Shown here: positions 4,562-40,287 of the stretch, in pieces
Numbering within the stretch: the stretch's first letter is position 1
How the letters are laid out: each line of letters starts with the position of its first letter
DNA from: an uncultured Candidatus Saccharibacteria bacterium
GTDB lineage: Bacteria > Patescibacteriota > Minisyncoccia > Phycocordibacterales > UBA12088
Direction of reading: 5' to 3'
DNA length: 64,000 bases
Assembly (NCBI GenBank): GCA_964459635.1
Contig: CAYWMQ010000001.1
Span: forward strand, 8,342 to 72,341
The notes under the pieces: generated by a model
Told to the model about the DNA's origin: nothing
The model's input: only the letters and a program-made list of their open reading frames with translations
Databases searched by the model: none
Position numbers and translations under genes: made by a program

Positions 4562-6175
4562 ATGGAATTGAACACGAATTGGCTGAAGGGTAACAGAAAT
4601 CTGCTGGCCGCGTATCGCAACATGGGCCAGCCGGAAACGTTGCCGTGGGATCACTACGAAGTGAGCATGGCGGACGTGGATGTGGCGGAGGGTCATGATG
4701 ACACGTACATGTCCAAGGCCTTCTTCATCCGAAAAGCGCCTTTTGGTGGCACGTATGCGCTGCTTGGTGGCTTGACCAAAGCGTTGCGAGTCATCAATGA
4801 TTGGCGCTGCGACCCGGTACAGGCGGAGATGCTGCGATATCTGGGCGTGCCTGAACGGTACGTGCAGTACTTGCAGCATCATCAGCGCTTGCGGCTGCGA
4901 ATCTACGCTATGCGGGAGGGCACACCATTCTTCCCCCATGAGCCGGCAATCATCGTCTATGGGCCAAAGCCCGATGTGCGTCTGGTAGAGGGTATTGTGA
5001 GCGAGGCGTGTAACTACGGCTCGCTGTCGCTCACGAAGTGGCATCGCATCGTGCAAGCTGCGCGTCCGGGCCAGGTGCTCGAGTTCTCTCGTCGCAGGGC
5101 TCAGAACAGCGTGCTGGCATCAATCTACGCAGCATGCGCCGGCTGCGCCGCCACGAGTAACACCGCAGTGCTGCAGCACCTTGATATTCCCGTTAAAGGA
5201 ACAATGGGACATGAGGGGCCACAGTCAGTCGGCGACCCACGGGCATGGTTTGATGCCATGTTGCGGGCTAATCCCCGCAACGCGATCGGGCTTGTCGACA
5301 CCATTAGTTGTCTCGACGTCGATTTCCCGGCTTGGCTTGACTGCGTGTATGTGCATCGAGAAGAGGTGAAAGAGCATGCTGCTGTTTGGGGATGGCGCAA
5401 CGACAGTGGGTCCCTGGCAGTGCTCACCATTGAGCAGTATCAGCGATTCAGGCGGCACCCACTTTCGCAGGACCGATGGTTCGTTGAGCGAGCTCGCGTT
5501 GTACAGGGAGGCGGCCTCGACGAATATAAGATCCAGGGAATAACGCGCGATGTATACAGCATGGCGAGGCAGATCGGTCTCGATGGCGATGACCTTGTGA
5601 GTCGCTTCATTTGGGCGGTCGGTGATGCAGGTGGCTCGTGCACCGATCAGCCCATACTTGGCGGTGTGATGAAAATCGGACTCGTCGGCGGCCAGGCAAG
5701 CATAAAGCTTGCCCTTGCGGCAGACGCGTCCGTGAGCGACAAGACGTCCATTCCAGGCTTTGTGCTCTCCGCGAACGTATATGACGCGGGCAACGAGCAT
5801 CAGGGTGTGTTGCTGTACCGGCCCTCGACGGACGCACTCGTTGCCAACGTGGTGGGGTCCGGTACGTGGTGGCCGGAGGATGTGGAAATGTGCGCGATGT
5901 CCAACAGGGCAAAGCGCACGCTCGTGCGCGGGGCTCGTGTTGAGCCGAAACATACGGTCGTCTACGATAGCCTCGTGGGGACGGGGCCGACTGCGTGGCA
6001 AGAAACCACCGTCGACTCTGTGCATACTGCAATCGAAGAGGAGGTGGGTAAGCTCTGGTGGGGAGCTCGGCAGTTGCAGGACCCGACGCCGCCGCGTGTG
6101 TCAGTGACGGAGGATCTGTTCGACTTGCGCCAGCGCATGATCGAAAATTGGCAGATTCTTGAGTCTGCTGCATAG
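4562..6175 (+). CDS. pncB: nicotinate phosphoribosyltransferase family protein
   Basis: Shine-Dalgarno GGAGGAGGGAGA directly upstream. LEFSRRRAQNSV...AACAGCAATSNTAV matches the NAPRTase EFGxRRAQ...TSNVxAG motifs. The protein is 537 aa, somewhat long for the family. Confidence 0.7.
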   Translation: MELNTNWLKGNRNLLAAYRNMGQPETLPWDHYEVSMADVDVAEGHDDTYMSKAFFIRKAPFGGTYALLGGLTKALRVINDWRCDPVQAEMLRYLGVPERYVQYLQHHQRLRLRIYAMREGTPFFPHEPAIIVYGPKPDVRLVEGIVSEACNYGSLSLTKWHRIVQAARPGQVLEFSRRRAQNSVLASIYAACAGCAATSNTAVLQHLDIPVKGTMGHEGPQSVGDPRAWFDAMLRANPRNAIGLVDTISCLDVDFPAWLDCVYVHREEVKEHAAVWGWRNDSGSLAVLTIEQYQRFRRHPLSQDRWFVERARVVQGGGLDEYKIQGITRDVYSMARQIGLDGDDLVSRFIWAVGDAGGSCTDQPILGGVMKIGLVGGQASIKLALAADASVSDKTSIPGFVLSANVYDAGNEHQGVLLYRPSTDALVANVVGSGTWWPEDVEMCAMSNRAKRTLVRGARVEPKHTVVYDSLVGTGPTAWQETTVDSVHTAIEEEVGKLWWGARQLQDPTPPRVSVTEDLFDLRQRMIENWQILESAA

Positions 6176-6212
6176 CAGGCAAGGCAACTGTTCTTTGGCG
6201 CACATGCGCTAC

Positions 6213-6236
6213 GGCCGGAGGGGAAACCTTCCGGCC
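6213..6236 (+). terminator. hairpin GGCCGGA-ggggaaacct-TCCGGCC after the pncB stop
   Basis: 7-bp GC stem about 40 nt after the TAG (6173-6175), followed by TTGACTTTATCG, which also supplies the -35 of the next promoter. Confidence 0.4.
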
Positions 6237-6264
6237 TTGACTTTATCGCTAGAATGTGTATAAT
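6237..6264 (+). promoter_or_regulatory. sigma70-like promoter TTGACT-16-TATAAT
   Basis: TTGACT at 6237-6242 and TATAAT at 6259-6264 with a 16-nt spacer, 63 nt upstream of ATG 6327. Confidence 0.5.
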
Positions 6265-6326
6265 TATAAGGGAGCAGTAGCACATCAAATCCGGTGTGCT
6301 CGCCGTTCCTGTTAATGGAGGATGCA

Positions 6327-6560
6327 ATGCAGATTAAGTTTGACCGCAACATCGGGCTCGCAGAGCTTCTCGATGCCTTGAAAGACAACTCGCACGTCAG
6401 CGGCCGGATCGAGAAAGATGGTGGCGTGGACGCTAGGTTCGAGCAGAATGCGCCGCGGGTACTTTTTACGTTTCGTCGACTGCCGGTCGCGGAGGTGAGA
6501 GCTATGCTAGCCTTTGACTATCCCGCTGCTGAGTGGGTGGTAATCACCGAGATTATCTAA
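6327..6560 (+). CDS. small hypothetical protein (77 aa)
   Basis: ATG 6327 with the Shine-Dalgarno GGAGGA (6317-6322) 4 nt upstream; the track start 6294 is an extension. Reads MQIKFDRNIGLAELLDALKDNSHVSGRIEKDGG... Confidence 0.5.
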   Translation: MQIKFDRNIGLAELLDALKDNSHVSGRIEKDGGVDARFEQNAPRVLFTFRRLPVAEVRAMLAFDYPAAEWVVITEII

Positions 6561-6597
6561 GCACAAGGTCGACCCTCGCCAGAAGACGTTCACACGG

Positions 6598-6622
6598 ACC
6601 CGGTGCTCTATGAGCACCGGGT
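6598..6622 (+). terminator. hairpin ACCCGGTGCTC-tat-GAGCACCGGGT after the small gene
   Basis: Perfect 11-bp stem with a 3-nt loop, 38 nt after the stop. No T-tract. Confidence 0.4.
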
Positions 6623-6673
6623 CTTACTGCGCGTGGTTGCTACACTAGCTTTCGTACTGATGGTTTTGCGTCT

Positions 6674-6708
6674 AACTCTAAACTCTAAACTCAAAACTCT
6701 AAACTTTG
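6674..6708 (+). repeat. heptanucleotide tandem array (AACTCTA)n, about 5 units
   Basis: aactcta aactcta aactcaa aactcta aactttg, 47 nt upstream of the ABC ATPase ATG. A related array actctaa actctac actatcc lies at 36279-36299 upstream of ATG 36316. Confidence 0.6.
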
Positions 6709-6754
6709 CACCTCTTCCTCTCTTCTTCATGAGCTTGTGCTACACTAGGTACCC

Positions 6755-7681
6755 ATGGCTGATGCTGCACTTTCACTACGCGACCTGCGCAAGACGTACG
6801 AAAACGGTACGGAGGCGCTGAAGGGTATCACGCTTGCCGTACCGCGCGGTGAGCTCTTTGCATTGCTCGGGCCGAACGGCGCGGGAAAGTCTACGACCAT
6901 AGGCATCATTACCGGGCTCACCAACAAGACAAGCGGCACAGTGGAAGTCTTCGGCACGTCCATCGACGCCGACCACGACAAGGTGAAGTCGTATATCGGG
7001 CTTGTGCCGCAGGAGATGAACTTCAACATCTTTGAGAAGGTCATAGACATCGTATGCACGCAGGGTGGGTACTACGGGCTCCCGCGCAAGCTTGCCGCAG
7101 AACGCGCGGAAAAGTATCTCACCGCGCTTGGTCTCTGGGATAAGCGCAACGACAAGGGGCGCACGCTCTCGGGCGGCATGAAGCGCAGACTCATGATCGC
7201 GCGCGCACTCGTCCATGAGCCGGAGCTTTTGATATTGGATGAGCCGACGGCGGGTGTGGACGTGGAGCTTCGCCGAGGCATGTACGACTTTCTGCGGCGG
7301 CTCATAGCAGAGGGTAAGACCATCATCCTCACCACGCACTACCTGGAGGAAGCGGAAGAGCTCGCGAAGGGGCTCGCTATCATCAACAACGGCACGATAG
7401 TGGCGGAGGGCACGGTAAAGCAGCTCCTTGCAGGTATGGACGCAGCCACGTACGTGCTCGACGTTGCCGGGCCGGTGCGCGCAGACGCTTTGGGTGTGGT
7501 ACGCGCGTATGCACCTCACGTGCGCGACAGCGATACGCTTGAGCTCACTGCGCGTACTGATGCGACACTGGGTCGTGCAGTCGCCCTGCTTGAGCAGGGT
7601 GGCGTGTCGGTAGTGAGCGTGCGACCCAAGGGGAATAGGCTGGAAGAATTATTCGTCAAGTTGACGAATAATTCAAAGTAA
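6755..7681 (+). CDS. ABC transporter ATP-binding protein
   Basis: Walker A GPNGAGKST, ABC signature LSGGMKRRL and Walker B LLILDEPT. It is adjacent to an ABC-2 permease. Confidence 0.9.
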   Translation: MADAALSLRDLRKTYENGTEALKGITLAVPRGELFALLGPNGAGKSTTIGIITGLTNKTSGTVEVFGTSIDADHDKVKSYIGLVPQEMNFNIFEKVIDIVCTQGGYYGLPRKLAAERAEKYLTALGLWDKRNDKGRTLSGGMKRRLMIARALVHEPELLILDEPTAGVDVELRRGMYDFLRRLIAEGKTIILTTHYLEEAEELAKGLAIINNGTIVAEGTVKQLLAGMDAATYVLDVAGPVRADALGVVRAYAPHVRDSDTLELTARTDATLGRAVALLEQGGVSVVSVRPKGNRLEELFVKLTNNSK

Positions 7682-7791
7682 AAAGTCAAAAGTCAAAATG
7701 CAAAAATCCAAGTCAAAATTCAAAAGCTGCGGCACTCGTACCTCTCACTTTTTACTTGCGCTTTTAACTTCTACCTTTTGAATTTTGACTT
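7681..7791 (+). promoter_or_regulatory. AAAAGTC-type heptamer array and a perfect 17-bp inverted repeat between the ABC ATPase and permease genes
   Basis: aaaagtc aaaagtc aaaatgc aaaaatc ... aaaattc at 7681-7728. AAGTCAAAATTCAAAAG (7710-7726) and its exact reverse complement CTTTTGAATTTTGACTT (7775-7791) are separated by 48 nt. The right arm ends 10 nt before the permease ATG 7802 and covers the alternative TTG start 7778. Confidence 0.5.
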
Positions 7792-7801
7792 ATACGACCT
7801 T

Positions 7802-8572
7802 ATGTCCAACCGTACCTACATCGCCTTCCAAACCATCGTCCGCAAAGAGGTCGTGCGCTTTATGCGCATATGGTCGCAGACGTTGCTGCCCGCCGTTATT
7901 ACCGCCACACTCTACTATGCGATATTTGGCGCTTTTTTGGGCGAGCGTATCGGGCAGGTGGAGGGAGTGTCCTACATCGCATTCATAGTACCCGGGCTTG
8001 TGATGATGGCGGTGATCACCAACAGTTACAGCAACACGGTAAGCAGCTTTTTCGGTTCGAAGTTCCAGAAAAATCTTGAGGAGCTTATGGTGGCACCCGT
8101 GCCGCACTGGGTGGTGATAGCGGGTTACACGGTAGGCGGTGCGTTGCGCGGGCTTCTGACCGGCATACTGTCGCTCGCAGTCGCGCTTTTCTTTACCCGC
8201 TTGCCCGTGGCCCACGCAGGACTCGTGCTCGTGTTTTTCGTGCTCACGGCGGTGCTTTTTTCACTTGCGGGGCTCATCAACGGTGTGTTTGCCAAGGGCT
8301 TTGACAGCATTTCGATATTTCCCACGTTCGTCCTCACGCCGCTCATCTACCTCGGCGGTGTCTTTTACCCCATTTCTGTTCTGCCGCCTTTCTGGCAGTC
8401 GGTATCGCTTGCGAACCCTATTCTGTACCTCATCAACGGCTTTCGGTACGGTTTCCTCGGCGTGGCGGATGTGCCCGTCACTGGGGCGCTTGCAGTCTTG
8501 GTAGGCTTCATCGTTGTGCTTGCGGCGGTGCTGCAGTACCTCTTCGTGAAAGGCTACGGGCTACGCAGTTAA
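7802..8572 (+). CDS. ABC-2 type transporter permease
   Basis: Six predicted TM helices, immediately downstream of the ABC ATPase. ATG 7802 (MSNRTYIAFQ) is preferred over the track's TTG 7778. Confidence 0.8.
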   Translation: MSNRTYIAFQTIVRKEVVRFMRIWSQTLLPAVITATLYYAIFGAFLGERIGQVEGVSYIAFIVPGLVMMAVITNSYSNTVSSFFGSKFQKNLEELMVAPVPHWVVIAGYTVGGALRGLLTGILSLAVALFFTRLPVAHAGLVLVFFVLTAVLFSLAGLINGVFAKGFDSISIFPTFVLTPLIYLGGVFYPISVLPPFWQSVSLANPILYLINGFRYGFLGVADVPVTGALAVLVGFIVVLAAVLQYLFVKGYGLRS

Positions 8573-8588
8573 GCGGGCAACTCAAAAA

Positions 8589-8616
8589 GAGGAGACAATG
8601 CCATGGTTGTCTCCTC
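8589..8616. terminator. bidirectional hairpin GAGGAGACAA-tgccatgg-TTGTCTCCTC
   Basis: Perfect 10-bp stem. The A5 run at 8584-8588 gives a T-tract on the minus strand, so it acts as a terminator for minus gene 8638..8838. It also lies 17 nt after the permease stop. Confidence 0.55.
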
Positions 8617-8637
8617 GTAGGTGCGTGCTTGCATTGC

Positions 8638-8838
8638 TCATTGCATGACCTTGGGCTCTTGGAGTGCCTGATGCTCAAGGGTGAGCAATAGCACTTCTTT
8701 TTCCAATGCCTCCGCAGTGGCAGTATCGCCACATGCTTGAGCTTGAGTCATTTTTGCCAGCAGGAGCTCAGCGCGCGCGGCCAAGTCCATCAGCGCCACT
8801 ACCAAATTTACATCGGTGTCCAAATACAGCATCATCAC
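8638..8838 (-). CDS. small hypothetical protein (66 aa)
   Basis: Shine-Dalgarno GGAGG directly upstream of ATGATG. It has its own promoter and a downstream terminator. The sequence is predominantly helical/coiled-coil-like. Confidence 0.5.
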   Translation of the reverse strand: MMMLYLDTDVNLVVALMDLAARAELLLAKMTQAQACGDTATAEALEKEVLLLTLEHQALQEPKVMQ

Positions 8839-8859
8839 CTCCGTCGCTGCATCTAACTT

Positions 8860-8888
8860 TAGTTAAGCACCCTGAGATAAGAGGTCAA
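8860..8888 (-). promoter_or_regulatory. sigma70-like promoter for 8638..8838 (minus strand: TTGACC-17-TAACTA)
   Basis: Reverse complement of 8883-8888 is TTGACC, and of 8860-8865 is TAACTA, with a 17-nt spacer. Confidence 0.4.
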
Positions 8889-8927
8889 TACGTCCTCGGG
8901 TGCATAAGTGTAAATCCACGCTTGCCC

Positions 8928-8957
8928 TTGACTTACCTGCTCAACAAGGCGTACTAT
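8928..8957 (+). promoter_or_regulatory. sigma70-like promoter TTGACT-18-TACTAT, divergent from the minus-strand promoter
   Basis: TTGACT at 8928-8933 and TACTAT at 8952-8957, 24 nt upstream of ATG 8981. Confidence 0.45.
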
Positions 8958-8980
8958 GTCGGCAGCAACGGAGGACGGAA

Positions 8981-9136
8981 ATGAGAAAAGTTTGTTCCGG
9001 GTTTTTTGAGATGCTCATTCGATGGCTCACGCCGCATATCCCACCAAGGGATGTTAGCAGCGGCTTTGACCGTATACAGGAGCCCGCGGGCGCGTATACG
9101 GGTCCCGTGGTGGTTGGTCGGGGGCGACAGGGATGA
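8981..9136 (+). CDS. very small hypothetical protein (51 aa)
   Basis: Shine-Dalgarno GGAGGA (8970-8975) 5 nt upstream of the ATG. Reads MRKVCSGFFEMLIRWLTPHIPPRDVSSGFDRIQEPAGAYTGPVVVGRGRQG. Confidence 0.4.
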   Translation: MRKVCSGFFEMLIRWLTPHIPPRDVSSGFDRIQEPAGAYTGPVVVGRGRQG

Positions 9137-12929: not shown

Positions 12930-14345
12930 ATGGTCGCACGTATTTTACTGCTTCTTGTGCTGTTTCAGCCTATCTACGTGGCGTTCGGCATGGAGCTCGG
13001 CGATGCAGCAAGCAGTGAGCAGGGAGTAGTGAGCAGTGTCGAAAACGACGCCGAAACCACCAACGAGCAAAGTACTGAGACGAATGCGCAGGATGCTATG
13101 AGCAGTACGGAAAATGCTGCAGATATGGCGAATGTCACTGATGGTGATGGCGCAGACCCGGTAACCACTACGAGTTCGGACAGAGCTGACGCTGGGCCAA
13201 TAGACACCGATGAGTCTGCGACGAATGCGGACGAAGATGCCGCTACGAGCACGGTACCCGATACTCAGTCAGAGATACCTGCCGACGAGGCGAGCAAGGA
13301 AGAGGAAGGGGCGGAAGGCGCTACAAGTACCGATTCAGTGACGAGCGATATAGACGAAAACGCGACCGAGGAGAGCAATGAGGGTACGGAAGCGAGTACG
13401 GAGATTGAAACGCAGACCAACACCGCAAGTAGTAGCGAAGCCTCAGCAACGTCGACAGAGGAAGAAACAATGGAGCCTGTGCTCCCGCCAGCGCCGCTTG
13501 CCCACAGTACCTCATCATACACGTTTGGCGTGGGTGACTGTACGCTCGTAGCAAACGGTGAGTTCTATTGCATCGCTGCGAGCGCCGACCGGGTTGTGAA
13601 TGGCGACCCGCGCGTTTATGCCGAGAAGGACCGTGAGGGTGACAGGGAGATCTACTACTTTGACGGCGTGGAGGTGCATCGCATTACCAACAACGGCTAC
13701 GATGACTTCGCGCCCGTCTTCGACGAGGACACGAAGCGCATCGCGTGGAACGCGATGATACAGGACCGCACACAGGTGATGCTGCACGATATTCAAACGC
13801 AGACCACTCGGCAGGTAACACAGAGCAGTAACACAGCAGGTACACCGCACCTCTTCCACGACTCACTCGTGTGGCAGGAGTGGGTGGACACCAATTGGGA
13901 AGTCTTTCGTGCGGACGCGGATGCGCTCGCGGCGGGGGCTGACGCGTCGGCAGAGCGCCTAACGGACAATGTAGTGCACGATATGTTCCCGCGCGCATAC
14001 GAGGGGCTTATTACATGGCAGCGCGAAAAGGGGCACTCATGGGAGGTGGTAGTGTACGATCTGCGGACACAAAAAGAGCACGCGCTTGAAAAGGAGGAAG
14101 ACACTAAGTACGAAAACCCCCGCTTCGTCCTTTTGTTCGACTCGCGCCATGAAAACGGGGACGTGGAGACGGTGGGCTACGACCTCGACTCGGGTGAAAT
14201 GATGGAGCTCGGCACCAAACCGCGAAGTATCCCCGCACATCCCCAGACGCCGCGCGACGAGACGGAGGATGCACTCCCGAGCGTAAGTCCCATGAATAGC
14301 GTAAAGCCTCTGCGTGATGATGCGGAGGGTACGGATGAGCTATGA
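12930..14345 (+). CDS. secreted acidic protein with a C-terminal PD40/TolB-like beta-propeller repeat region
   Basis: Start chosen at ATG 12930 (MVARILLLLVLFQPIYVAFG, a signal peptide). The track's 12567 extension is Arg-rich and lies over an AT-rich promoter-like island. About 180 aa of the sequence is a D/E/S/T-rich linker. This is followed by REGDREIYYFDGVEVHRITNNGYDDFAPVFDEDTKRIAW-type repeats. The stop overlaps the giant-gene start (ATGA). Confidence 0.55.
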   Translation: MVARILLLLVLFQPIYVAFGMELGDAASSEQGVVSSVENDAETTNEQSTETNAQDAMSSTENAADMANVTDGDGADPVTTTSSDRADAGPIDTDESATNADEDAATSTVPDTQSEIPADEASKEEEGAEGATSTDSVTSDIDENATEESNEGTEASTEIETQTNTASSSEASATSTEEETMEPVLPPAPLAHSTSSYTFGVGDCTLVANGEFYCIAASADRVVNGDPRVYAEKDREGDREIYYFDGVEVHRITNNGYDDFAPVFDEDTKRIAWNAMIQDRTQVMLHDIQTQTTRQVTQSSNTAGTPHLFHDSLVWQEWVDTNWEVFRADADALAAGADASAERLTDNVVHDMFPRAYEGLITWQREKGHSWEVVVYDLRTQKEHALEKEEDTKYENPRFVLLFDSRHENGDVETVGYDLDSGEMMELGTKPRSIPAHPQTPRDETEDALPSVSPMNSVKPLRDDAEGTDEL

Positions 14346-17300
14346 GTATGCGCGAATGGTGGAGCGGCTATGATGTTTTCGGGCACGTAAAGCGTGTGTA
14401 CTTTCTCGTGCGCGGCGTTTTCAACCGATGTGCTCAGGCTCTGCGCGCGCGCATAAGTGCTGTGGGCGCAGCCACTATAGGCAGCACGCTCGTGCTTGTG
14501 GGCATTTTCATTTTTGCGTGGCCGCAGCTTGCGCCCTTCCTTGGCTTAGGTGAAGCGCAAGCGGCGACGTATCGCTTCCAGACAGGGTACTACATGGGTG
14601 ACGGCGGCTCGAAAGCTATCACGGGGCTTGGCTTCACGCCGGACTTGGTCATCATTAAAGCGGACACTGCTGCGGGCACCGGCGCCATCATGAAAACGAG
14701 CGTTATGCCACAGAACTCCGTGGCGTACCTCGGTGTCGCCACTGCAGACGATGTGACGGGGCAGATCCAACTTACGTCGGACGGCTTCGTGGTGACGGGC
14801 GCGCTCACAAACACCGCCGGCGCCCGGCATGTGTACATGGCGTTCGGTGGCTCAGATTGCGGCGCCGGTGGCCAGTTTTGCGTCGGTGCATTTACGGGTG
14901 ATGGTAATGCGAGCCAAGTGGTATCAACGGGTTTTTCTCCGGATCTGGTCTTGGCGAAACCAACAACGGCCGTACTTGCCTCTTGGCGCTCAAGCAGCAT
15001 GGCAGACAATGTAGGTCAGTACTTCGCTGCGGCAGCGGAAGACAACACCGGTACGCTCTTTACGACGCTTGACGGTAATGGCTTTTCGGTTGGTAGTGGC
15101 AATAACACACCTGCCACCACCTACCATTTTGTTGCGTTTAGAGAAGCGAGCGGTTCAATCGACGTTGGTACTTACACAGGAGACGGGCTGGACAATCGTG
15201 CGCTTACCGGTGTTGGCTTCGCGCCAAATTTTGTCTTTTCGAAGCAAACAGGTGCGTCGAGCACGATCTTTAACGTAAGCGAGACCTACGGCGATTACTC
15301 GGGCTTTTTCATTGACGCAGCGAACGCGGCTGATGCGATTCAGTCGCTCGACAGTGACGGTTTTTCCCTCGGTACGAGCGTCACAGCAAATGCCTCAGGT
15401 GTGCCGTACCATTACGTCGCGTTTGGCGGCGCTATTGCACACACTGCGAGCGGCACATTTAAGGCTACGTCAGGCACATACACAGGGAATGGTACCGGGC
15501 AAACCATTGTGGATCTTGCGTTTGAGCCTGACCTGGTGGTGATAGCCGCGAGCGGTACGCAGTATGCCGTGTTTAGGACGCGCGATATGGGTAATGATTC
15601 GACCGCGTTTCTTGCGAACGCGGCGGCTAACTTTGCAGGCGGCATTACGACCTTAGGTACAAACAGTTTTACTCTCGGTAACAGTGCCACCGTGAACGCC
15701 GCCGGGGTCGAGTATGTCTGGACCGCCTACGGCAATGCATGGGATCCGGAGACACACACAGGCGCAGCGGACTTCACGGTGGGCATGTACTATGGCAACG
15801 GTCTTGATAACAGGGACATCACTCGACTGCCGTTTGCTCCGGACTTTGTCGCAGTGAAAAGGAGCGGCGCTACCCAAGGTGTGTGGCGTTCGAGCGAGCA
15901 CAGCGGCGACTTGTCCAGCTTCTTCCATGGCGCTGCGGAGGCGGCAAACAATATCCAAGCGCTCACATCCGATGGCTTTGAGGTGGGTACTGCGGCAAAC
16001 GTAAACACCGCCGCCAATCTCTACCCGTTTTTTGCGTTTGCTACGAGCTCGTCTTTTGCGGTCGGGACATACAGCGGTACGGGTGTGGCGCAGACCGTTG
16101 CGACACCTCTGGCGCCGGCACATGTGTGGGTGAAGCAGACGGGAGCTGTAGCAGGCGTGCTTAAGACAGCGAGCACTACCGGCTCGACTTCTCTCTCCTT
16201 TGCTAACACCGCGCCGCAACAAGACGGCATTGAACAGCTTACCGGCAGCGGCTTTCTCGTAGGGGCAAGCACCACGGTGAACGCGGTTGGCGTCAACAAC
16301 TATCGGTACGCTGCGTGGCGCGATACCGACGTGCGCGGTACCTCTACCTATCGCATGCAGACGGGGTATTTCGTGGGAAACGGAGGCAGTAAGGATATCA
16401 CGGGCCTCGGCTTTACGCCGGACTTGGTCATTGTGAAAGCTGACACAAACGCCGGTACGGGAGCCACGTGGAAGTCAAGCGCAATGCCGCAGCAGGTCAC
16501 CGCACACTTGGGAAGTGCGACGGCGGACAACACGGCGGGTCAGATCACCCTCATTGAGGGCGGTTTTCGGGTAGCAGGCGCAAATACGAGTGCCGCTAAT
16601 ACCAGGTATACATATGTCGCCGTGGGCGGCAGCGACTGCTCTGCAAGCGGCACCTTCTGTGTGGGCAGGTTTACCGGCACAGGGGCGGCGACGCTTTCAC
16701 TCACGACAGGCTTCTCGCCCGAACTCGTGTGGGTGAAACGCTCCACGGCGGTACTGCCCTCTTGGCGCTCGAGCACGATGGCGGTCAATGTGGCAAACTT
16801 TTTCAGCGCAACGGCGGAAGACGCAACCGGGGCCTACTTCACTACGCTCGACGGCAGCGGCTTTACGGTTGGCACCACAAACAATGCAAGTGGAGGCTCG
16901 TATTACTTTGTGGCGTTTTCGGAAGCCGCAGGTGCTGTCGACGTGGGTACGTACACCGGCAACTTGACCGTGGACAGATCAATAGCAGGTGTAGGCTTTT
17001 CTCCCGACTGGGTATTTACCAAACAAACAGGTGCATCGGCCGCTGTCTACAACCAGCGTGAGTCATATGGTGACCACTCAAGCTATTTCGCGGACACCGC
17101 CAACCTCACGGACGCTATACAGGTACTGGAGGCAGACGGCTTCCAGGTGGGTGGTAACAGCACAGCACATGCAAACGGAGTGGTGTACCACTACGCCGCA
17201 CTCGGCGGCGCACTTGCACACGCGGCGAGTGGGACGTTCACCACCCTTTCGGGGTCGTACGTGGGCACCGGCGATGCCGGCCAAGTCACGGGACTGGGTT

Positions 17301-20300
17301 TTGCGCCCGACCTTGTCATCATCAAAGGTGACGTTGCTCAGTCCGGTGTGTTTGCGTCGAAGCTCATGGCGGGAGACTCTACGGCGTACCTCGATCAGGC
17401 CACCGCTAACTTTGCGGGCGGTATCACCGCACTCGGGACGGACGGTTTTTCGATCGGGACAAACGCGAGCGTGAACAGTGATGGGGTAACGTACTACTGG
17501 ACAGCGTACGGCAACGCCTGGAACCCGGAGACGCACCGCGGCGCTGCGGATTTTGCGCTCGGCGCACACTATGGCAACGGCATTGATGGGCGCGATGTCA
17601 CTCGGATACCGTTCAGCCCGGATCTCGTGGCATTGAAGCGCAACGGTGTAACGGGCGGAACGTGGCGTACGAGTGCACATGCCGGAGACGCGTCGAGCTT
17701 TTTTGCGGCCACCGCAGAGGGGGCAAACCGTGTGCAGGCATTGAACGCAGACGGATTTGAGGTTGGTACAAATGCGGAGGCAAACCTTGCAAACAACATC
17801 TACTGGTCGTTTGCGTTTGCCGAATCAGCCACGTTTGCGGTGGGGACCTACAGTGGTACAGGTGTAAGCCAGACCATTACTGTGGGCTTTCAGCCCTACC
17901 ACCTTTGGGTAAAGCATACCGGTGCCACACGCGGAGTTTCGCGTCCGTACGCCCTTGCGGGGGACGGTGCCTTGCCGTTCATTAGTGCCGGACTCGTGAG
18001 CGGCGCGATCTCGGCCTTTGCACCGACGGGTTTTGCCGTTGATGCCGCGGTGGAAACAAACACGAGTGGCGCGAACAACTACCGCTTTGCTGCTTGGAAG
18101 AAGAACGAGCTTGAGCAGACGCACTATCATTGGCGCTATGACGATGGCGACGAGGACGGCGCAAGCTCCGCGACGGGTGGGGCGGAAGATACGGCCCTGT
18201 CGGATGTGCGCGAGGGCTTGCCGTACCGTCTGCGTATCGGTCTTGCCAATATCGCGAGCGTTGCCGCCAGCTCCACAGGCTTTCGTATTGAGTTTGCTGA
18301 AAAAGGAGCAACCTGCGCAGCGGCTACGGGGTGGGCTCGCGTAGGTGATGCCGGTGGCGCATGGGACCTGTATGACTCACCCAACCTCACCCAAGGTGCG
18401 AACACCACCAACATACCGCTGTCCTCGGGCGGCGTGAGCGATGAAAACGACGACTTCATGTCACCGAATGGCGGCATTGCAGACACGGGTGATGAGACGC
18501 CTGCCTATGTGCTCGCGGCGTCCGAATTTGCGGAGCTTGAGTATGCCCTCACACCCACCGTGTACGCGACAAGTGCCGTAACGTACTGTTTCCGTGTGAC
18601 GGCGCAAGGTACCCCGCTCTCTATGTACTTGCAGTACGCTGAAGCGACATTCCGCACACATGTCACCGCCACCACGCTCGGGACACAGGTGAGTGAGGTC
18701 ATCGTGCCATCAAGCTCAGCATACCTGGGTGGGGCATTTGTGCTCACCGATGCGACCACCGACAGTACGCACTCCATTACGGACATTGAAGTGACCGAAA
18801 GCGGCACCGTGGACGCTGCGGCCCACCTCGACAATATCAAGCTCTTTTATGAGTACGACACGAGCGCTCCATACGACTGCGCGAGCGAGTCGTACGGAGG
18901 CAGTGAAGCACAGTACGGTCTTACTGATAGTGACGGCTTTAGCGGCCAAAACGGCACCTCGGCATTTGCCGGGTCTGTCTCCGCAAGTAGTACTCAAGCG
19001 GTGTGTTTGTACCCGGTGTTGGATGTTGTTGCGGGTGCGCTCTCCGGGCAAACAGTTGAGCTCTCGCTCGCGAGCGCAAGCGCCGTTACGGTGGCGGGCG
19101 GAGAAGTGCCGCGCTTTGCCGAGACGCCTCTGCACCTTTCGGGCGACACGACACTTGTAAGCCCGCTCCTTACGGCTACTCACTACCACTGGCGTTCAGA
19201 CGATGGCTCGGAAGCGACAGCGGGGTCCGCCACAGGTGGCATAGAAGATACGCCACTGCTCAACCTTACGAAAGGTGCGGGTCGGCGGCTTCGTATAGGT
19301 GTGTCAAATGAAGGGCTTGCAACATCGAGCGCAACGTCGTTCCGCGTCGAGTATGCGGAACGCAGCGGTACCTGCAGTGCGACCACAAACGGCTGGACCG
19401 ATGTCGGTGCTGTTGGTGGCGCATGGGATATGTATGACAGTGCCAATCTCACCGAAGGCGCCGATACCACCAACATAGCGCTCGCAAGCGGCGGCGTGAC
19501 GGATGAGAACACTACGTTCCTCACCGCAAACGGCGGCGTTCGAGATACCACATCACAAACGGGGGCGCTTTCGCTCGGGCCCGCCGAACATACCGAGCTT
19601 GAGTACTCGCTCGTGGCACTCGCCGGTGCGTCCGATGGTACGAGTTACTGTTTCCGCGTGACGGATGCGGGAACTCCGCTTCCGGCTGCAGCGGCGCATC
19701 CCGAGGTATTGGTTGCTGCCGACGTGCTGGTATCGAGTTTGGGCACGCATGTAACCGCGGTGCGGGCCGGCGCAAGCGATACGTACATCGCGGGTCCATG
19801 GGTGGTGACCGATCAAGGTGGTGGCCGCAACGTGACCGGTGTGCTTCTCAGCGAAACGGGCTCCGTAGATGGTGCGAACAATCTTGCGAATATTCGTCTT
19901 TACTACGATCTTGATACTTCGGCGCCGTACACCTGTGCGAGCGAATCCTATGCGGCCGGTGATAGCCAGTTTGGTGCCACCTCCACTGCGTTCAGTGCCG
20001 CAAACGGTACCACGAGCTTCAGTGGCTCGGTGGGCATTTCCGGGACGGCGACATTGTGTCTCTATGCAGTGCTTGATGTGCGTAGTACTGCAGAGAACGG
20101 AGAAACCATCACGCTCAGCATTGCGAACCCAAGCACCGACGTGGCCGTGTCTTCGGGTACCGTCAATCCGAACGACCGCGTGGCACCTTCCGGCACTACA
20201 ACCATAGAGCGACAGACGGTGACCCAAGAGCATTACCACTTCAGGCGTGATGATGGCGGAGAGGCGGCGGCAAGTTCTGCGACGGGCGGAAGTGAAGATA

Positions 20301-23300
20301 CTCCTCGTACCGGCATGCAGCCCGGCGTGGTGGAACGACTGCGTATAGCACTTGCAAACCAAGGCGGTACCACAACGCTTGCGTCCACGTATCGGCTTGA
20401 GTACGCGGAGAAGGTGGCCACGTGTGCTGCGGTAGGCGCGTGGCAGACGGTGGGGAGCCCCGGTGCGGTATGGAGTCTTGCTGTGTCGGAGGAGCTTACC
20501 GACGGGAGTGACACCACGAACATCGCGGTTGCGACCGGCGGTGTGACCGACGAGCAAAGTACGTTCTTATCGTCAAATAATGGCGTGCATAACGGCCGGG
20601 CTACAAGTGGCGCGCTCGTACTCGACAGCGATGAGTTTGTGGAGTACGAGTACGTGCTTGAGCCCAACGTGGAAGCGGCAGCGGGTGCCTCGTACTGCTT
20701 CCGTGTCGCGCTCGCCTCGGGTGCCGCACTCGACGCGTACGATACGTACCCCGAAGCAACCCTCGCTGCGGAGCGCGACTTTTTCGTGCAGCGCGGCGTT
20801 GTTGATATTGCAAACGGCACATCGACCGTTTCGCTTGTGGCGGGCACACACTACACTGCGCCGCGCGCAAGTACGTCTGCCTTTATACGCATCACGAACG
20901 CCATGTATACCGGGGCGGGTGCGACCGCAGGCGGCGGCAACCAAAACGCGAACAGCGTCACGACCAGTATTCTGAACCCGAGCGACATACTGACCGGTGT
21001 CACCTTCCGACGTGCCGGCGCGGTCAACTCCACGCGCATCTACTGGGAGCTTGTGGAGTACGTAGGGCCTCCCGGCGGGGACAACGAATTCATAGTGCGC
21101 GCACAGGAGCGCGTAGCGTACGGAGCGGCGGACACAAGCGTGTCGCGCAGCGGCGTACCCGGCGTGGCCGACGATGGCCAGGTCGCCGTATTCATCACCG
21201 GCCAAGAAAATCCGGCAGGTACCCTCACCGACTACCATGCAGGCATCTCCACGGCAGCGTGGACCGGTGCGTCGGACACTGCCACGTTCACCCGTGGCGC
21301 AGCAAACGGGTACGCAGCGGCTCTTTCCTTCGCAGTGATTGAGTGGACTGGCGCAAACTGGCGTGTGCAACGTGTTGAGCATACGCATGGGGTGGCGGGA
21401 GCGAATGAGACTGAAGTCATAGTGCCTGTTAATGATACATCGCGCGCGTTCTTGCATACGCAAAAAAGGGTAGGGGTGGGGCAAGTTGACGAGTTTGGCC
21501 ACCAGGTGTGGCTCTCGGGAGTGGGCGATGTCACCTTTTCCATACCCGCCACGGCCGCAAGTCCGGGCACGCATGTGTCTGTCGCATGGGTCATAGAGAA
21601 CACACAGACAAATGGGTCCCCGATGGTGGTGACACGGTCGAATGGCACGCAAGCGGCGGGCGGCGCTGAGCCTTCAACGTACCCTCTCTCCATAGGTACG
21701 ACCATTTCCGCTACCAACAACGCATCCATCTTTATGAACGTGTGGGGTTTGGGCGACACAACGAACCATCCTCGCGCTATTATGGGCGCGGGCATTACCG
21801 GTACCGCATTTTATGAACTTTGGATATCGGATACGGGATCCGGCCGGACGTACCGTACGGAAGTGGTGGACTGGCCGACAGCGGAGCTTTCTTTTGAGCA
21901 GTACTATTACCGCTGGTATGAAGACAACGACGCCCTTGACCCCACCGATGCATGGCCGAGTACGAGCGGTGTGTTGGGGGAAAACACCGCCATCACACTT
22001 ATGGATGAGCCACCCACCGCGGGGGATGTGCTGCGTTTGCGTACGACGGTGCGCGTGCATGGTGCGAGCCTCTCACGGGAGCTGCGCCGCTTTAAGCTAC
22101 AGTACGCCGCACGCACCACGACGTGTGGTGCTGTTGCGAGTTGGTACGACATAGGGGACAGTGCATCCACGACGTCTCTTTGGCGCGGGTATAATGCATC
22201 GCCTGCGGACGGCACCGCTCTTTCGACCGACCCCCCGACAGTGGGCGACCTTAACCTCTCCGTGTCCATCTCGGGCCGTGCCGGCACGTACGAAGAGTCA
22301 AATCCGACCGCCATAAACCCGTACAAAGCATCGATAGGTGAAACCATAGAGTACGACTGGGTGCTTGAGCCGAACAATGCGCCCGACAAGACGACCTACT
22401 GCTTCCGCATGGTCGAGGAAGATGGGACGGAATATCTGGAGTATACGCACTACCCCACGCTTACGACCGCAGGCTTTGAAGTAGCCCAGCACGCATGGCG
22501 TTGGTATGATGACGCGGATGTTGTCACTCCGCTCGTACCACTGGCAGCTACCAACACAGCGCCCTCGAATGTTGCGCTTGATAACGTGTTCAAATTGCGC
22601 GTGCTGCTCAGTGAAGTGGCGGGAAAAGCCGGCACGGGCGTGAAGTACAAACTGCAGTACTCCGAGTACCCTGATTTCAGCGTGGTCGCCGATGTCGCAT
22701 CGGCGGACGCCTGTGCGCCCGGTTCGCGTTTCTGCTACACGGACGGGGGCGGCGCAGATACGGCACAGATACAGGCCGCAGTGCTCTTTGGTGCGGACAG
22801 CTGTTCAGGTGGCGAGGGGCAGGGGTGTGGTACTCACAACGAGCTTCCGTATACCCCGGACATCGTGGGAGAAACGGGCACTACCAGTGTCACAGCTGCA
22901 GGCATGGTCGTGACACTCGCACATACCTATGACGACCCGGTGTTTATTGTCGAGTCTGTAACGGGTGACCCGAGCGGTGGGGCTGCAAACCGCCCCGCAG
23001 CGGCGTTCCTTACCGCTACGTCCACCTCAAGCTTCACGGTACGTGTGGGCGAGCCGGACGATGAGCCCGATACGCATGGTGCCGAGACGGTGGCGTACCT
23101 TGTGATGGAGCGCGGTGCGTACCAGCTACCCGCCGGCCCGCGCGTGGACGCGAACAGCACCACGACCTCCGCGTACCGCGGGAGCGTCGTCGGCGGCAGT
23201 GCGGGCACGTGCACGTTCGTGCAAGCATTTGATTCCGCCCCTGTGCTTGTTGCGGCACTGCAGAGCAACAACAACACAGGGTCGCCCGACTTTCTCACCG

Positions 23301-24415: not shown

Positions 24416-24474
24416 GGTGTGTATGAGTGCGCGTACACACGTGGCACAGTGGTATACTTGAGGTGCATCTTGCT

Positions 24475-27400
24475 ATGGGAGAGCGTGCCTATATAAAGAC
24501 AGAGGATGACCCGCTCGCCGGAAAGACGGTCCTTCAGCCGTACGTGTCTGAAGAAGTTCTGCGCGCCTTGTCCGAAGAGGAACTCTTGAACCAAGCGAAC
24601 GCTGCGCGTGTCGCCCTTGGGATGGCGCCATTGTCCGACACAGCGGACGCTGTACAAGCTGATCCACAGCGGAAAGAAGTGATAATTTTGGCTCTCGAAC
24701 GAAATCTTGCTAAGTTTCACGAAACTCAGCAAGGAGAGAGCGGCGATGCCGAGTTTGCCTATGTATACGACCCGCGCAATGGCAGAGGTGAATGGCTTTC
24801 GCGGGAGCAAGCATTGCGTGCAGGTTTCACTGAGCGTGCTGCTTCTGCGGACGATGCAGACGCGCTACGCGCACGTGCCGGAGAGTTGCTTGAACAGGCA
24901 AATCTCCTGAGATCTTCGCTGGTGGGAAACCAGAGCAAACAAAAGGCGCGTCTCGACGTTGCGATCGTGCGCCTTCAGGGGCTTTTGGAGGAAAGGCCAT
25001 CCGATATTGCTGCGCTTGAAGAAAGAGTGCGTGATCTTGAGGAGGAGGTAAGGCGGCAAGAACAGCCGGGCGAAAACCCAACTTCAGACGTACAAAACAA
25101 GAATCCTGCTATACGCGTGAATGAAAGGGACGTTGCGGCTTCTGAGGAAAAAGCTGCGGTTGAGCGACAGGAAGCAGAGCTTCGGGACCTATCAAAAAGA
25201 TTTGAAAGATTTGAAGTAGGCACGGTGTCCGGTGATCAAAACTATTCCCGCGACTATGACCGTGCAGAACATCTACTATTTGAGCTGGAAAAACGTCTGG
25301 AAGGCTCTTCAGAGCAGGTACGGCAAAGTGAGATTCGCCATTTAGAGCGTTTGATTGTAAAGCTTGAAAGAATGCAAGCATCAGCAAAGGCCGGACCTGG
25401 AGCTCCAGAGCCTGCGCCCACCCCTGCCCAAGAAGCGGATCCACACACTGCAGAACGCGCGCGAGCACGTGTATACGAAGAAGTGGCGATGGAAATACTC
25501 GCGCGACTACCCGAGGGCAACGATTGGGAGAAAGCGAAAAAAAGGTTCTTTACCGACGATTGGGAACGAATTACGCGCGAAGTGGGAAGCGAGAGTACCA
25601 CACCTGATTTGAAAAGGCTTATTGTGGAGTACGATCATTTGCGCGCATATGAATGGAACTTAAAAGAGCCGTCTTCGGGCGCAGCCCACACAGAGGCTGC
25701 GGAGCCTACCCCCGCTCCCACACCAGAAGCGGATCCTCACGCGAGCGAGCGTGCAGAGGCGCAGCAGCTCGAAGAAGAGGCGCAGCAGCTCATCGCTACG
25801 CTACCTACGGGCTACGACGCTGCAGATCTGAGCAAGCAGGGTGCGGAAAAAAGTTGGGAAGCGCTTGTGCGGAAAAGTGGCAGTCAAGCAAAGACTCCCG
25901 ACCTTACGGTGCTGCGTGACGCGCTGGAAGAGCTGCGCAGACTTGTTGCACATACGCCACCCAAGGCTCCGGAAAGCCCACATGCCGGATTCAAGATAGA
26001 AAAGGGCGGGAAGGCCGAGATCACGCGTCTGGAAAACTATGTTGCTCTGCGACTTGCTGAACTTCCGGTTACCACTGACGAAGAGAGGGCGCACCATGAC
26101 GTACTTATTGCTGAGTGGAAACATCTAAAAGAGCAGTATGGCTCACATGCAGCCAAACCGGAGTACGAGCACTTAAAAGACTTCGTACTCGCTCATTTGA
26201 AGCTGGGCGGGGTCACGACAGAAGCTGAGCTTGATGCCGTGCTCGGCGTCGTGTCGGACAAGAGCGCACTTGGCACCGAGACCGAGGCTGAGCGCATTAC
26301 AGCGCTCGCACAGGAGCGGGAAGAGAATCACCTTCGGACGCGCGAGGCATATGGCGCAGAAATTCGCGAGGCGCGAGAGAGGTACCAAGGCTACCGTAAG
26401 GAGCTTCTTGATGCGGAGGAAGCGTATCTTAATGCGGTTACGGCCCACCGGGAAGGCACCAAGTACTTTAAGGGGCTGCGCAACAGGCTCTTGCGCAACA
26501 CTGAGGGTCAGGAGCAGATCGCTAAGCTTGAAAGAGATATGCGAGCTGCGCAGGTGGAGTTTGAGACAAAGCTTAATGAAATGAAAGCTGAGCGCGCCGA
26601 ACGCCTGGGACTCACGCATCGCTTGCTTGAAATGAGCTACCAACGGCGGTTGGGTGGTGAGAACGATCCCGCCGCCCATCCGGAGCGCCGCAAAGCGCAG
26701 CGCGAGGCGAAATTTGCTGCGCTCCACGAAGCTCTGGTGCTGCGCTCTACTTCTACGATGCTGGAGCTTGCGCAGGGAATCGGCGGCAAGGAGGAGCTTG
26801 ATATCGCGGTGGCAAGCCGCGTGGGTGTGAGGAGGGAAGACTTGAGTGAAGGAACGCGGGATGCGTCCGGCGTGCTCACGCCCGAGGCACAGGTACGCGC
26901 CACCGCGCGCAAAGAGCACTGGGCGGAGCTTGAAAAAGCGGTCGGCGAACGCAAGGACCCCTCCCGCCTCGTGCGTACGTACAAGGCGGGGATGCGGTAT
27001 TACCGGAGCATACCAAAAGAAAAGCAGCTTGCCATACGTATGCTGGGTGGTGGTGCTGTAGGTCTCGTGGTGGGCGGTGGCGCAGGGGCGGCCGCGTACA
27101 TGGCGGCGCGCGCAGGCGCAGGCTTCTTCGGAGGTGCACTTATGGCGGGCGCCGTGTCAAAAAAACTTTTTGGAGCTACCGAGCGGCACATAGCTCGCAG
27201 TAAAAAGGGTATATTGGAGAGCGACACCATGACTCTTGCGGATAAACAGCACGAGTACATGGCCATGCGCAGGAGAGAGCGCAACATGAAGCGGGGCGCA
27301 ATGGCCCTCACAGGCGCAGCGGCATTTGCTGCCGGCGCATCCGCAGGACAGGCGGTAAACGAGGTTGCCATGAGCGGCCTTTCGCTTGAGTCCATCGGAC

Positions 27401-36675: not shown

Positions 36676-36833
36676 AAACGAAAGGCACCTGCCGATAGCA
36701 GGAAAGTTAAAAGTGCATTACACGCGTTAACGTCGGCGGTCGTCTAACTGGACCTACACGGTCTAAGGCATTTTGGTGGCGTGAAGTCATGGCAAACCGT
36801 CTATGGCTTTCACTCCCGTGTGCTGTTACGTAG

Positions 36834-36861
36834 CGTGTTACGTAGCATGCTACGTAACACG
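36834..36861. promoter_or_regulatory. perfect 28-bp palindrome CGTGTTACGTAGCATGCTACGTAACACG
   Basis: Self-complementary across 28 nt. It has a flanking direct repeat GTTACGTAG (36825-36833 and 36837-36845) and lies in a ~500-bp region with no credible ORF. Confidence 0.5.
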
Positions 36862-36929
36862 CTGTGCGGTAGGTGTTCAGCCGCCCGATTACGCAGCCAA
36901 GCTGTGCGAGTTCTGTTCGGGCGCGCCCC

Positions 36930-37049: not shown

Positions 37050-37094
37050 CCTGCCTGCCGGCAGGCAGGTACATTTTAACTTTTGACTTTTGTT
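37050..37094 (+). terminator. perfect 20-bp GC palindrome CCTGCCTGCCGGCAGGCAGG followed by T-rich heptamers (ttttaac ttttgac ttttgtt)
   Basis: Terminator-like: a GC hairpin followed by TACATTTTAACTTTTGACTTTTGTT. It could end an unannotated transcript from 36676-37050, or act as an operator upstream of the FGE gene. Confidence 0.4.
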
Positions 37095-40166: not shown

Positions 40167-40287
40167 TCTTTATCCACACGTTACGCTCGCATATGCACAT
40201 GCGCATGCACGTGTGGTGCTATACTCTGAGTAACAACGCTCCGGGCGACCGGCCATCACGCGTTCTTTAGGATAAGTTCTATCTCCT

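Follow-up and report, generated by a model that had tools for sequence, protein, structure and literature searches.

Introduction

According to the part of PMC4679880 that cites Mrazek (2007), heptanucleotides are the most abundant class of long simple-sequence repeats (SSRs) in prokaryotes, which is attributed there to polymerase slippage. Heptanucleotide repeats located directly upstream of starts without a Shine-Dalgarno sequence were described in Beggiatoaceae and cyanobacteria, and the unit TAACTGA of marine Beggiatoaceae forms 169 direct sets and one indirect set only (MacGregor, 2015; PMC4679880). Here, an intercistronic spacer is described that consists of two opposed AT-rich arms with heptad periodicity and separates the two genes of an ABC transporter operon in an uncultured Candidatus Saccharibacteria bacterium. 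The whole stretch of DNA analyzed, in the following called the window, comprises 64,000 nt of contig CAYWMQ010000001.1 (assembly GCA_964459635.1, positions 8,342 to 72,341 of the forward strand).

Further systems come into consideration for such a locus. Palindromes of the repetitive extragenic palindrome (REP) and bacterial interspersed mosaic element (BIME) type are found between cistrons, for example between malE and malF in E. coli. REPs are G + C-rich sequences of about 35 nt, which occur in hundreds of nearly identical copies and are associated with RAYT transposases. Quasi-palindrome (template-switch, Ripley-type) mutagenesis is a mutational mechanism and not an element. In the opa genes of Neisseria, CTCTT pentamers are repeated in the coding sequence of the signal-peptide region, and the CtsR operator, (A/G)GTCAAA NAN (A/G)GTCAAA, repeats its heptad with a period of 10 bp upstream of stress genes.

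The spacer is interpreted here as a quasi-palindromic hairpin derived from SSRs, which may tune or uncouple permease expression or lead to differential mRNA stability. A probability of about 45% is assigned to this interpretation.

Anatomy of the Inverted-Repeat Spacer

The upstream gene of the operon (6755-7681, plus strand, taken from the list of open reading frames (ORFs), TAA stop at 7679-7681) encodes an ABC transporter ATP-binding protein of 308 aa (Pfam PF00005, E = 6e-33). The downstream gene (7802-8572, plus strand, ATG at 7802) encodes an ABC-2 type permease of 256 aa (PF01061, E = 5e-37). The 120 nt between them (7682-7801, plus strand) have a GC content of 35%, compared to about 59% for the window, and the element occupies the whole gap. 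An earlier inspection of the letters alone, here called the sequence-only reading, had reported a perfect 17-bp inverted repeat at this position. Coordinates and sequence were confirmed: AAGTCAAAATTCAAAAG at 7710-7726 is followed, after 48 nt, by its exact reverse complement CTTTTGAATTTTGACTT at 7775-7791. Complementarity continues outward to 44-nt arms (7683-7726 and 7748-7791) at 70%, and the extended arms begin 2 nt past the TAA stop of the ATPase gene.

The left extended arm is included in an A-rich heptanucleotide array (7675-7726, plus strand), for which Tandem Repeats Finder (TRF) reported the unit AAAGTCA in 7.6 copies with 73% matches; its last 17 nt are the left arm of the perfect repeat and pair in the minimum free energy (MFE) stem. 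The T-rich right arm (7748-7791, plus strand) ends with the perfect arm, 10 nt from the permease ATG. The lag-7 autocorrelation is dominant in both arms, with z = 5.0 for the left and z = 3.8 for the right arm, and TRF called no array in the latter. The opposed heptamer arrays proposed in the sequence-only reading are present as a tandem array on the left and as a 7-nt periodicity on the right. Between the arms lies a non-repetitive core richer in G + C, CTGCGGCACTCGTACCTCTCA (7727-7747, plus strand), which forms the apex of the extended hairpin. The AT skew of the spacer changes from +0.47 in the A-rich first half to -0.45 in the T-rich second half.

Because pairing is trivial for any sequence that is A-rich in its first and T-rich in its second half, a strict null model was used in which each half of the spacer was shuffled separately with its dinucleotides kept, so that the A-rich-left and T-rich-right layout was preserved. 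The observed length of 17 compares to a mean of 7.9 and a maximum of 13 for the longest perfect repeat in 100 sequences shuffled in this way. Searching the window for the 17-mer with up to three mismatches resulted in seven matches against 0.06 expected, five of them within the element and two in other T-rich heptad arrays. Together with a second locus at 40025-40166, the spacer repeat represents the longest inverted repeats within 250 nt across the 64 kb.

Folding of the RNA from 7670 to 7815 yielded -21 kcal/mol (z = -1.6 against dinucleotide shuffles). For the spacer alone, z amounted to -2.7 with dinucleotide shuffles and to -1.9 with half-preserving shuffles; over these folds the MFE was -20 to -21 kcal/mol. 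The stem expected from the letters thus forms in the folding, with moderate significance only (z = -1.6 to -2.7). On thermodynamic grounds a long stem is expected in the bicistronic RNA. As related species have a spacer at the same position, the one at this ABC junction probably represents a genuine RNA hairpin, though a modest one. The window gave no match to Rfam 15 at the gathering thresholds, and with a permissive E-value the region 7550-7900 returned only sub-threshold chance hairpin matches.

Occurrence of the Spacer in Distant and Close Relatives

Among 79 distant homologous operons taken from genomes of GTDB species, 76 have a junction of ATPase stop and permease start that ranges from a 34-nt overlap to a 25-nt gap, the commonest form being a 4-nt ATGA overlap. 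Since these 76 operons are without such a spacer, the 120 nt are, on this comparison, an insertion into a normally coupled gene pair. Five Logan metagenome contigs of the same strain carry the spacer without any difference, also in the heptad copy number, in a small sample that possibly represents a single population; the strain was matched at 100% identity in the SRR136170xx runs. An identical permease protein is present on 12 contigs, and its best genome matches are metagenome-assembled genomes (MAGs) of Candidatus Adlerbacteria and Kaiserbacteria with 56-60% identity, by which the organism is placed among the Patescibacteria-like bacteria of the candidate phyla radiation.

For a closer comparison, relatives at 66-89% identity for ATPase plus permease were obtained via the protein database, and a genus-level clade of 12 species (70-89% protein identity) was considered. 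A metagenome scan for further close relatives revealed only homologues of at most 61% identity among the matches listed. Seven of the 12 species carry a spacer of 99-180 nt at the same junction, and six of these seven spacers fold as a long hairpin, namely those of the window (120 nt), L086 (179 nt), L175 (118 nt), L177 (at least 173 nt), L090 (145 nt) and the species represented by the two strains L088 and L089 (157 nt). The seventh, L091, has a spacer of 99 nt and no hairpin; L087, L092, L093, L176 and L094 have no spacer. Presence is patchy on the protein tree, with L087 being sister to the group of L088, L175 and L177, and L093 being 89% identical to L091. The left arm shows lag-7 periodicity in the window, L086, L175, L088 and L090 (z = 2.7-5.0) with differing unit sequences.

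At four-fold degenerate sites of the permease gene, spacer-bearing species share 34-47% identity, which is near saturation. Local alignments of the spacers, scored against block-shuffled controls, nevertheless link five of them: z was 4.2 for the window and L086, 3.2 for L086 and L175, 4.2 for L175 and L177, 5.7 for the window and L177, and 7.6 for L088 and L177. Splitting the spacers into left part, core and right part located the similarity mostly in the arms, e.g., L088 and L177 share 19 of 21 positions of the left arm, and L086 and L175 are similar in both arms. Cores are mostly unalignable between species, with one exception (14/17 matches between the window and L175). Between the strains L088 and L089, four single-nucleotide polymorphisms (SNPs) were found in the 157-nt spacer, all outside the 66 nt of the arms (p about 0.11), and four synonymous SNPs in 1,005 nt of the adjacent ATPase 3′ end and permease gene. 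Because the spacers align despite nearly saturated synonymous sites, with similarity biased to the arms and arms free of SNPs, the alignments suggest one old insertion followed by several losses, in which the arms evolved more slowly than neutral sites.

The orthology suggested for five spacers argues against independent insertions of a miniature mobile element, either a miniature inverted-repeat transposable element (MITE) or a REP/REPIN-like sequence. Such an origin would fit the terminal inverted repeats and the extragenic position right after a stop codon. Furthermore, a mobile-looking palindromic insert occurs at the same ATPase-permease junction in a Coxiellaceae MAG (L056, 3834-3997 of that sequence). 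This insert is unrelated to the spacer, G + C-rich, 164 nt long and folds with -69 kcal/mol; it resembles the MITE or REP type and was acquired independently, so that hairpin-forming insertions are tolerated at the junction. In the window, however, no direct repeat flanks the spacer as a target-site duplication, no second copy of an arm was found in the 64 kb or in the relatives' loci, and the phage and plasmid collections contained no match. The inverted repeat at 40025-40166 is unrelated in sequence, and in the 7-20 kb around the operon of eight relatives no long AT-rich spaced inverted repeat was found other than that of the spacer. A mobile element is thus regarded as extremely unlikely. 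The same results contradict the genome-wide element family proposed in the sequence-only reading: the search for further inverted pairs yielded none beyond the two loci of the window or in the eight relatives' loci, neither element has further copies in the window, and a dispersed family was rejected also for lack of a match in Rfam.

RNA Structure and Access to the Permease Start Codon

In every hairpin-bearing spacer the MFE fold is a single long stem-loop, with 1-28 unpaired nt between the ATPase stop and the stem and about 8-21 unpaired nt between the stem and the permease start. The distance from the repeat arms to the permease ATG amounts to 8-38 nt in the hairpin-bearing species. Palindromy beyond the A-left and T-right composition was detected for the window, for L088 (z = -5.0) and for L090, where a perfect repeat of 14 bp compares to a maximum of 11 in the shuffles.

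The stem had been supposed to bury the translation initiation region of the permease, which is only weakly true. It covers positions -27 to -11 relative to the start codon and stops 10 nt before the ATG. Opening of the region from -3 to +5 costs 1.1 kcal/mol, and opening from -15 to +12 costs 8.6 kcal/mol, a value within the range of 3-14 kcal/mol of relatives without a spacer. Occlusion of the start codon was therefore discarded as marginal and equal to that in spacer-less relatives. The suggestion of an mRNA-stability element stands in the broader form of an intra-operon role at the RNA level (stability, processing or coupling), which fits a spacer conserved in seven of 12 species and hairpins in six.

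Several results weigh against a role of the spacer as an RNA element. The hairpins of L086, L175 and L177 are no better than the composition of an A-rich half and a T-rich half predicts, and the spacer of L091 is without any hairpin (fold z = 0). RNAalifold, applied to two trios of spacers, found no shared pairing register, an unfavourable (positive) covariation term and a weak consensus energy, with low-complexity right arms whose alignments are unreliable. The more stable strand is inconsistent, being minus in the window and plus in L088, so that the mRNA strand is not clearly indicated. Five of the 12 clade members live without the spacer, which makes it dispensable. The SNP comparison of the arms rests on four sites with p about 0.11, and the similarity of arms consisting of A-rich, low-complexity sequence may be partly convergent.

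Operon Context and Transcription Signals

Most genes of the window are located on the plus strand. A motif search identified an extended -10 promoter-like motif, TGCTACACTAG (6738-6748, plus strand), which ends 8 nt 5′ of the ATPase ATG; the ATPase gene is accordingly preceded by TGCTACACT, whose end is 8 nt from the ATG. In most of ten relatives examined (L086, L175, L087, L088, L090, L092, L093 and L176 were compared), TGnTAnAnT is found 8-9 nt 5′ of the ATPase ATG. The recurrence implies that this is the promoter form typical of the lineage. Given the distance of 8-9 nt to the ATG, the operon mRNA is probably leaderless. The 11-nt sequence TGCTACACTAG occurs a second time as an exact direct repeat at 6638-6648, 100 nt away from 6738-6748, and the two copies flank an AACTCTA array at 6674-6705. 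Two explanations come into question, namely duplication of the promoter or a target-site-like duplication on both sides of an inserted segment.

A canonical hairpin terminator (8589-8616), identified by a terminator scan and in the sequence, follows the permease gene and lies between convergent genes. Inside the spacer, neither a plus-strand promoter (sigma-70 scan) nor a terminator (scan of 6100-9000) was matched. This agrees with the earlier placement of the element inside the ABC operon, with a promoter before the ATPase gene and a terminator after the permease gene. The 20 nt upstream of the permease gene contain no Shine-Dalgarno-like motif (no GGAG or AGGA), and the same was found in every relative compared.

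The empty terminator scan bears on a further proposal of the sequence-only reading, an intra-operon attenuator or terminator that would reduce transcription of the permease relative to the ATPase. A hairpin starting within a few nucleotides of the ATPase stop and a U-rich 3′ arm would suit such a function, and the second locus, which lies behind the end of one gene and ahead of the following promoter, occupies the expected position of a terminator. The spacer, however, contains no G + C-rich stem followed by a T run: its stem is A-U-rich, 17-44 bp long and has no free U tract behind it, whereas canonical G + C-rich hairpin terminators are used by this genome at 6213, 8589 and 37050. The permease gene is furthermore without a promoter of its own. 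Attenuation is considered very unlikely.

As another source of permease expression, an internal promoter for a leaderless permease mRNA was considered, and along with it a small membrane or type-I-toxin-like peptide encoded in the spacer. In the window, L175, L088 and L091, TAYAC-like hexamers precede the permease ATG by 4-9 nt, but they lack the TGn extension and the 8-9 nt spacing of the ATPase promoters, and the sigma-70 scan found no plus-strand match in the spacer. The candidate peptide MQKSKSKFKSCGTRTSHFLLALLTSTF, from a 27-aa ORF at 7698-7781, has a Lys-rich N-terminus and a hydrophobic tail. This ORF is not conserved, the counterparts being 28 aa and non-hydrophobic in L086, 14 aa in L175 and at most 12 aa in L088 and L090. 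Both variants are held to be highly improbable.

A fusion of the two proteins by read-through or bypass was rejected. The window spacer is in frame and stop-free over 40 codons, but in L086, L175, L088 and L090 the spacer length is not divisible by three, and matching take-off and landing codons are missing.

The strict 7-bp phasing of A-tracts in both orientations, with a periodicity conserved across species, would also be compatible with an operator at the DNA level. In such a case a protein reading 7-bp direct and inverted repeats, as the inc18 omega repressor or CtsR do, would regulate the operon or organize the DNA. The resemblance of the AGTCAAA units to the CtsR half-site (A/G)GTCAAA and the lack of a strand consistently favored for RNA folding point in this direction. 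On the other hand, the heptad sequence varies among species and among arrays of the same genome (AAAGTCA, AACTCTA, TACTTTC, TTTTGTC, TTTCTTG), and the spacing is 7 in place of the 10 of the CtsR operator. In addition, the element is located 900 nt downstream of the promoter within the transcription unit, and no candidate regulator gene is adjacent. An operator is accordingly rated as distinctly improbable.

Heptad Arrays and Palindromes Elsewhere in the Window

Apart from the spacer, AT-rich arrays of period 7 were found at five positions of the window. Two of them are the AACTCTA array at 6674-6705 mentioned above and a TTTTGAC array at 37074-37092. The other three are located in 5′ coding regions: a TACTTTC array of 7.6 copies (33762-33814) in the gene of a 477-aa protein of unknown family, a TTTTGTC array of 3.9 copies (38171-38197) in the gene of a dockerin protein and a TTTCTTG array of 4.4 copies (40909-40939) in the gene of a cohesin protein. 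Three AT-rich period-7 arrays are present in 14 kb of L091, and the period-7 arrays in 613 kb of distant relatives are minimal runs of two to four copies only. Genome-wide, there is a tendency to form AT-rich heptanucleotide tandem arrays, which is a mutational style and not a repeated element.

The three coding arrays encode the hydrophobic core of signal peptides (...PVFA|QD, ...SAFA|TS and ...SAHA|AS), and the proteins look secreted. Since 7 is not a multiple of three, addition or removal of a single unit would put the following codons out of frame, and the genes for the 477-aa, dockerin and cohesin proteins may be phase-variable. In 90% clusters, no length variants of the coding arrays were found. 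The TTTTGAC array is part of a different arrangement (37050-37092), in which a G + C-rich hairpin, CCTGCCTGCC/GGCAGGCAGG, is followed by the heptad-periodic T-rich tail TTTTAAC TTTTGAC TTTTG. By its sequence it appears to be a terminator with the heptamer array serving as the U tract.

Palindromes are likewise not restricted to the spacer. A perfect palindrome of 14+1+14 nt, GAATTATTCGTCAA G TTGACGAATAATTC, was detected by the repeat search within the last codons of the ATPase gene (7646-7674). Its right half encodes a C-terminal extension of the ATPase (..LTNNSK), where relatives end with LTNS, LTKG or LTSA. This points to a palindrome extension that rewrote the gene end, and template-switch palindrome formation would then be active at this locus. 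Two perfect palindromes without a loop were observed at 190-223 (17+17 nt, CAACAGTCTATGAACGG/CCGTTCATAGACTGTTG) and at 36832-36863 (16+16 nt, AGCGTGTTACGTAGCA/TGCTACGTAACACGCT), the latter in a region of 12-nt tandem repeats.

These arrays and palindromes bring up the possibility that the spacer is a neutral by-product: slippage of AT-rich 7-nt units and template-switch palindromes would pile up at the junction, and the RNA hairpin would form without any adaptive role. Arrays in such unrelated contexts as 6674, 33762, 37074, 38171 and 40909, as well as in L091, are in line with this, as is the reported abundance of heptanucleotides among long prokaryotic SSRs and its attribution to slippage (PMC4679880, where it cites Mrazek, 2007). 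A perfect 14+14 palindrome even overwrites the C-terminus of the ATPase. Moreover, no conserved pairing register was found with RNAalifold, composition alone explains three of the six hairpins, the spacer is lost or absent in five of the 12 clade members and hairpin-less in L091, and its non-arm part evolves between the strains L088 and L089 at least as fast as synonymous sites. Neutrality is opposed by an arm homology that is detectable and concentrated in the arms despite nearly saturated synonymous sites, and by the persistence of the spacer in gene-dense genomes over such divergence. Furthermore, copy numbers do not vary among five metagenome assemblies or in the coding arrays, which speaks against very active slippage. 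A spacer of the same origin but without function is the main alternative, and it is judged to be somewhat unlikely.

The Second Inverted Repeat and Its Neighbourhood

The second inverted repeat (40025-40166, plus strand) has arms of 37 nt (40025-40061 and 40130-40166) that are 76% complementary, with the outer 16 bp being perfect, and a G + C-rich core of 68 nt. Its RNA fold of -51.1 kcal/mol is significant against shuffles (z = -4.95) and against the half-preserving null (z = -3.8). The architecture of the spacer thus recurs at this position, as noted before; in sequence, the two loci are unrelated (score z = 0.1). The second locus begins 5 nt past the stop codon of the dockerin gene and is followed downstream by the promoter of an Hsp20 gene (Pfam). 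Direct repeats, TTAAGCTCGC and TTACGCTCGC (40120 and 40181), flank its T-rich arm.

The Hsp20 small heat-shock gene is located at 40288-40794, with the promoter TGCTATACT at 40217. An inverted repeat, CCACACGT-N25-ACGTGTGG (40175-40215), overlaps this promoter from upstream and, by its position, could be a heat-shock operator. The gene is flanked by genes for secreted proteins bearing a dockerin (38125-40020) and a cohesin (40811-42346), which suggests that this Patescibacteria-like genome encodes a surface assembly of the cohesin-dockerin type. The window also contains three giant ORFs at 14342-24415 (3,357 aa, DUF7483 by the Logan gene calls), 24427-30312 (1,961 aa) and 43278-62726 (6,482 aa).

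Proposed Origin and Function of the Spacer

For the hairpin spacer derived from SSRs, the following course of events is proposed. AT-rich heptanucleotide SSRs would have expanded by slippage and would then have been duplicated in inverted orientation by quasi-palindrome formation, resulting in an A-rich left half and a complementary T-rich right half. Transcribed from the extended -10 promoter as a leaderless bicistronic mRNA, the two halves would anneal to form an extended, A-U-rich stem-loop, by which the spacer would for the most part be looped out. The hairpin would thereby substitute a structured junction for the coupling by stop/start overlap seen in relatives. We infer that the permease-to-ATPase ratio could be set in one of three ways: stop and start codon may be kept spatially close for re-initiation, the hairpin may act as a 3′ stabilizer of the upstream cistron, or it may serve as a double-strand processing site.

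A more specialized variant would regard the opposed heptad arrays as a dedicated device for expression of the downstream cistron. Either the terminating 70S ribosome would pass across the base of the hairpin to the permease start, as a bacterial analogue of ribosome shunting, or a double-strand RNase would release a permease mRNA with a short leader. In both cases an S1- or Csp-type RNA-binding protein could recognize the A-tracts phased at 7 nt. This variant is quite improbable. If true, it would represent an undescribed coupling of cistrons without overlap or Shine-Dalgarno sequence.

If the spacer is functional as a tuning or uncoupling hairpin, it would show how two genes coupled in translation can be re-engineered in bacteria of the candidate phyla radiation (CPR), in which leaderless mRNAs and overlapping stop and start codons appear to be used in place of Shine-Dalgarno sequences. 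SSRs would in this case have provided the raw material of an RNA structure. With its conserved position and rapid turnover of sequence, the locus would offer a small natural experiment on structural versus sequence constraint. If the spacer is neutral, it would testify to a strong bias for heptanucleotide slippage and palindrome formation in a streamlined genome, which also writes the signal peptides of surface proteins and may thereby be relevant to phase variation. Either way, the significance is on a local scale and no new class of genetic system is involved.

Comparison With Known Repeat Systems

The spacer resembles the heptanucleotide long simple-sequence repeats (LSSRs) such as the short tandemly repeated repetitive (STRR) sequences of cyanobacteria and TAACTGA of the Beggiatoaceae in its tandem intergenic 7-nt units, the several unit sequences per genome, the sporadic distribution and the proposed origin by slippage. 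Head-to-tail units of 5-11 nt beyond composition, as in LSSRs, are present; copy-number variation between strains was seen neither among the five contigs nor in the 90% clusters of the coding arrays. As in the TAACTGA network, the T-rich arm ends 10 nt before a permease ATG without a Shine-Dalgarno sequence. In contrast to that network, the units are AAAGTCA and TTTTGAC (A4-5NNN and NNNT4-5), and a single exact TAACTGA is found in the second locus (region 40042-40048). STRR and TAACTGA repeats also differ from the spacer in that here two opposed arrays form a hairpin between the cistrons of an operon, at a position conserved across species, and in that the host is a high-GC Patescibacteria-like genome.

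With REP and BIME sequences the spacer shares its nature as an imperfect palindrome, placed within an operon immediately behind the stop of the upstream ABC transporter gene, and the expected stem-loop in the mRNA could likewise protect the upstream cistron and shift the product ratio. Unlike these, it is A-T-rich, 110 nt long, single-copy and evolving in place. The many copies typical of REPs and MITEs were not found, as no 17-mer with up to three mismatches occurs outside the heptad arrays in the 64 kb. A likeness to quasi-palindrome mutagenesis is given by the perfect 17-bp core within arms of 70% complementarity and by the 14+14 palindrome of the ATPase gene, both of which look like imperfect repeats corrected to perfection.

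The coding arrays at 33762, 38171 and 40909 resemble the opa repeats of Neisseria, since in surface proteins the hydrophobic core of the signal peptide is encoded by T-rich non-triplet units, but the unit has 7 nt in place of 5, no copy-number variation was seen, and the ABC spacer is non-coding. In contrast to the CtsR operator, the AGTCAAA units at 7684, 7691 and 7711 are spaced 7 bp apart and lie within the ABC operon. Heptanucleotide SSRs and intercistronic palindromes are thus known kinds of sequence; less usual is their combination in a hairpin of opposed arrays, conserved in position and not in sequence, in a leaderless lineage of the CPR.

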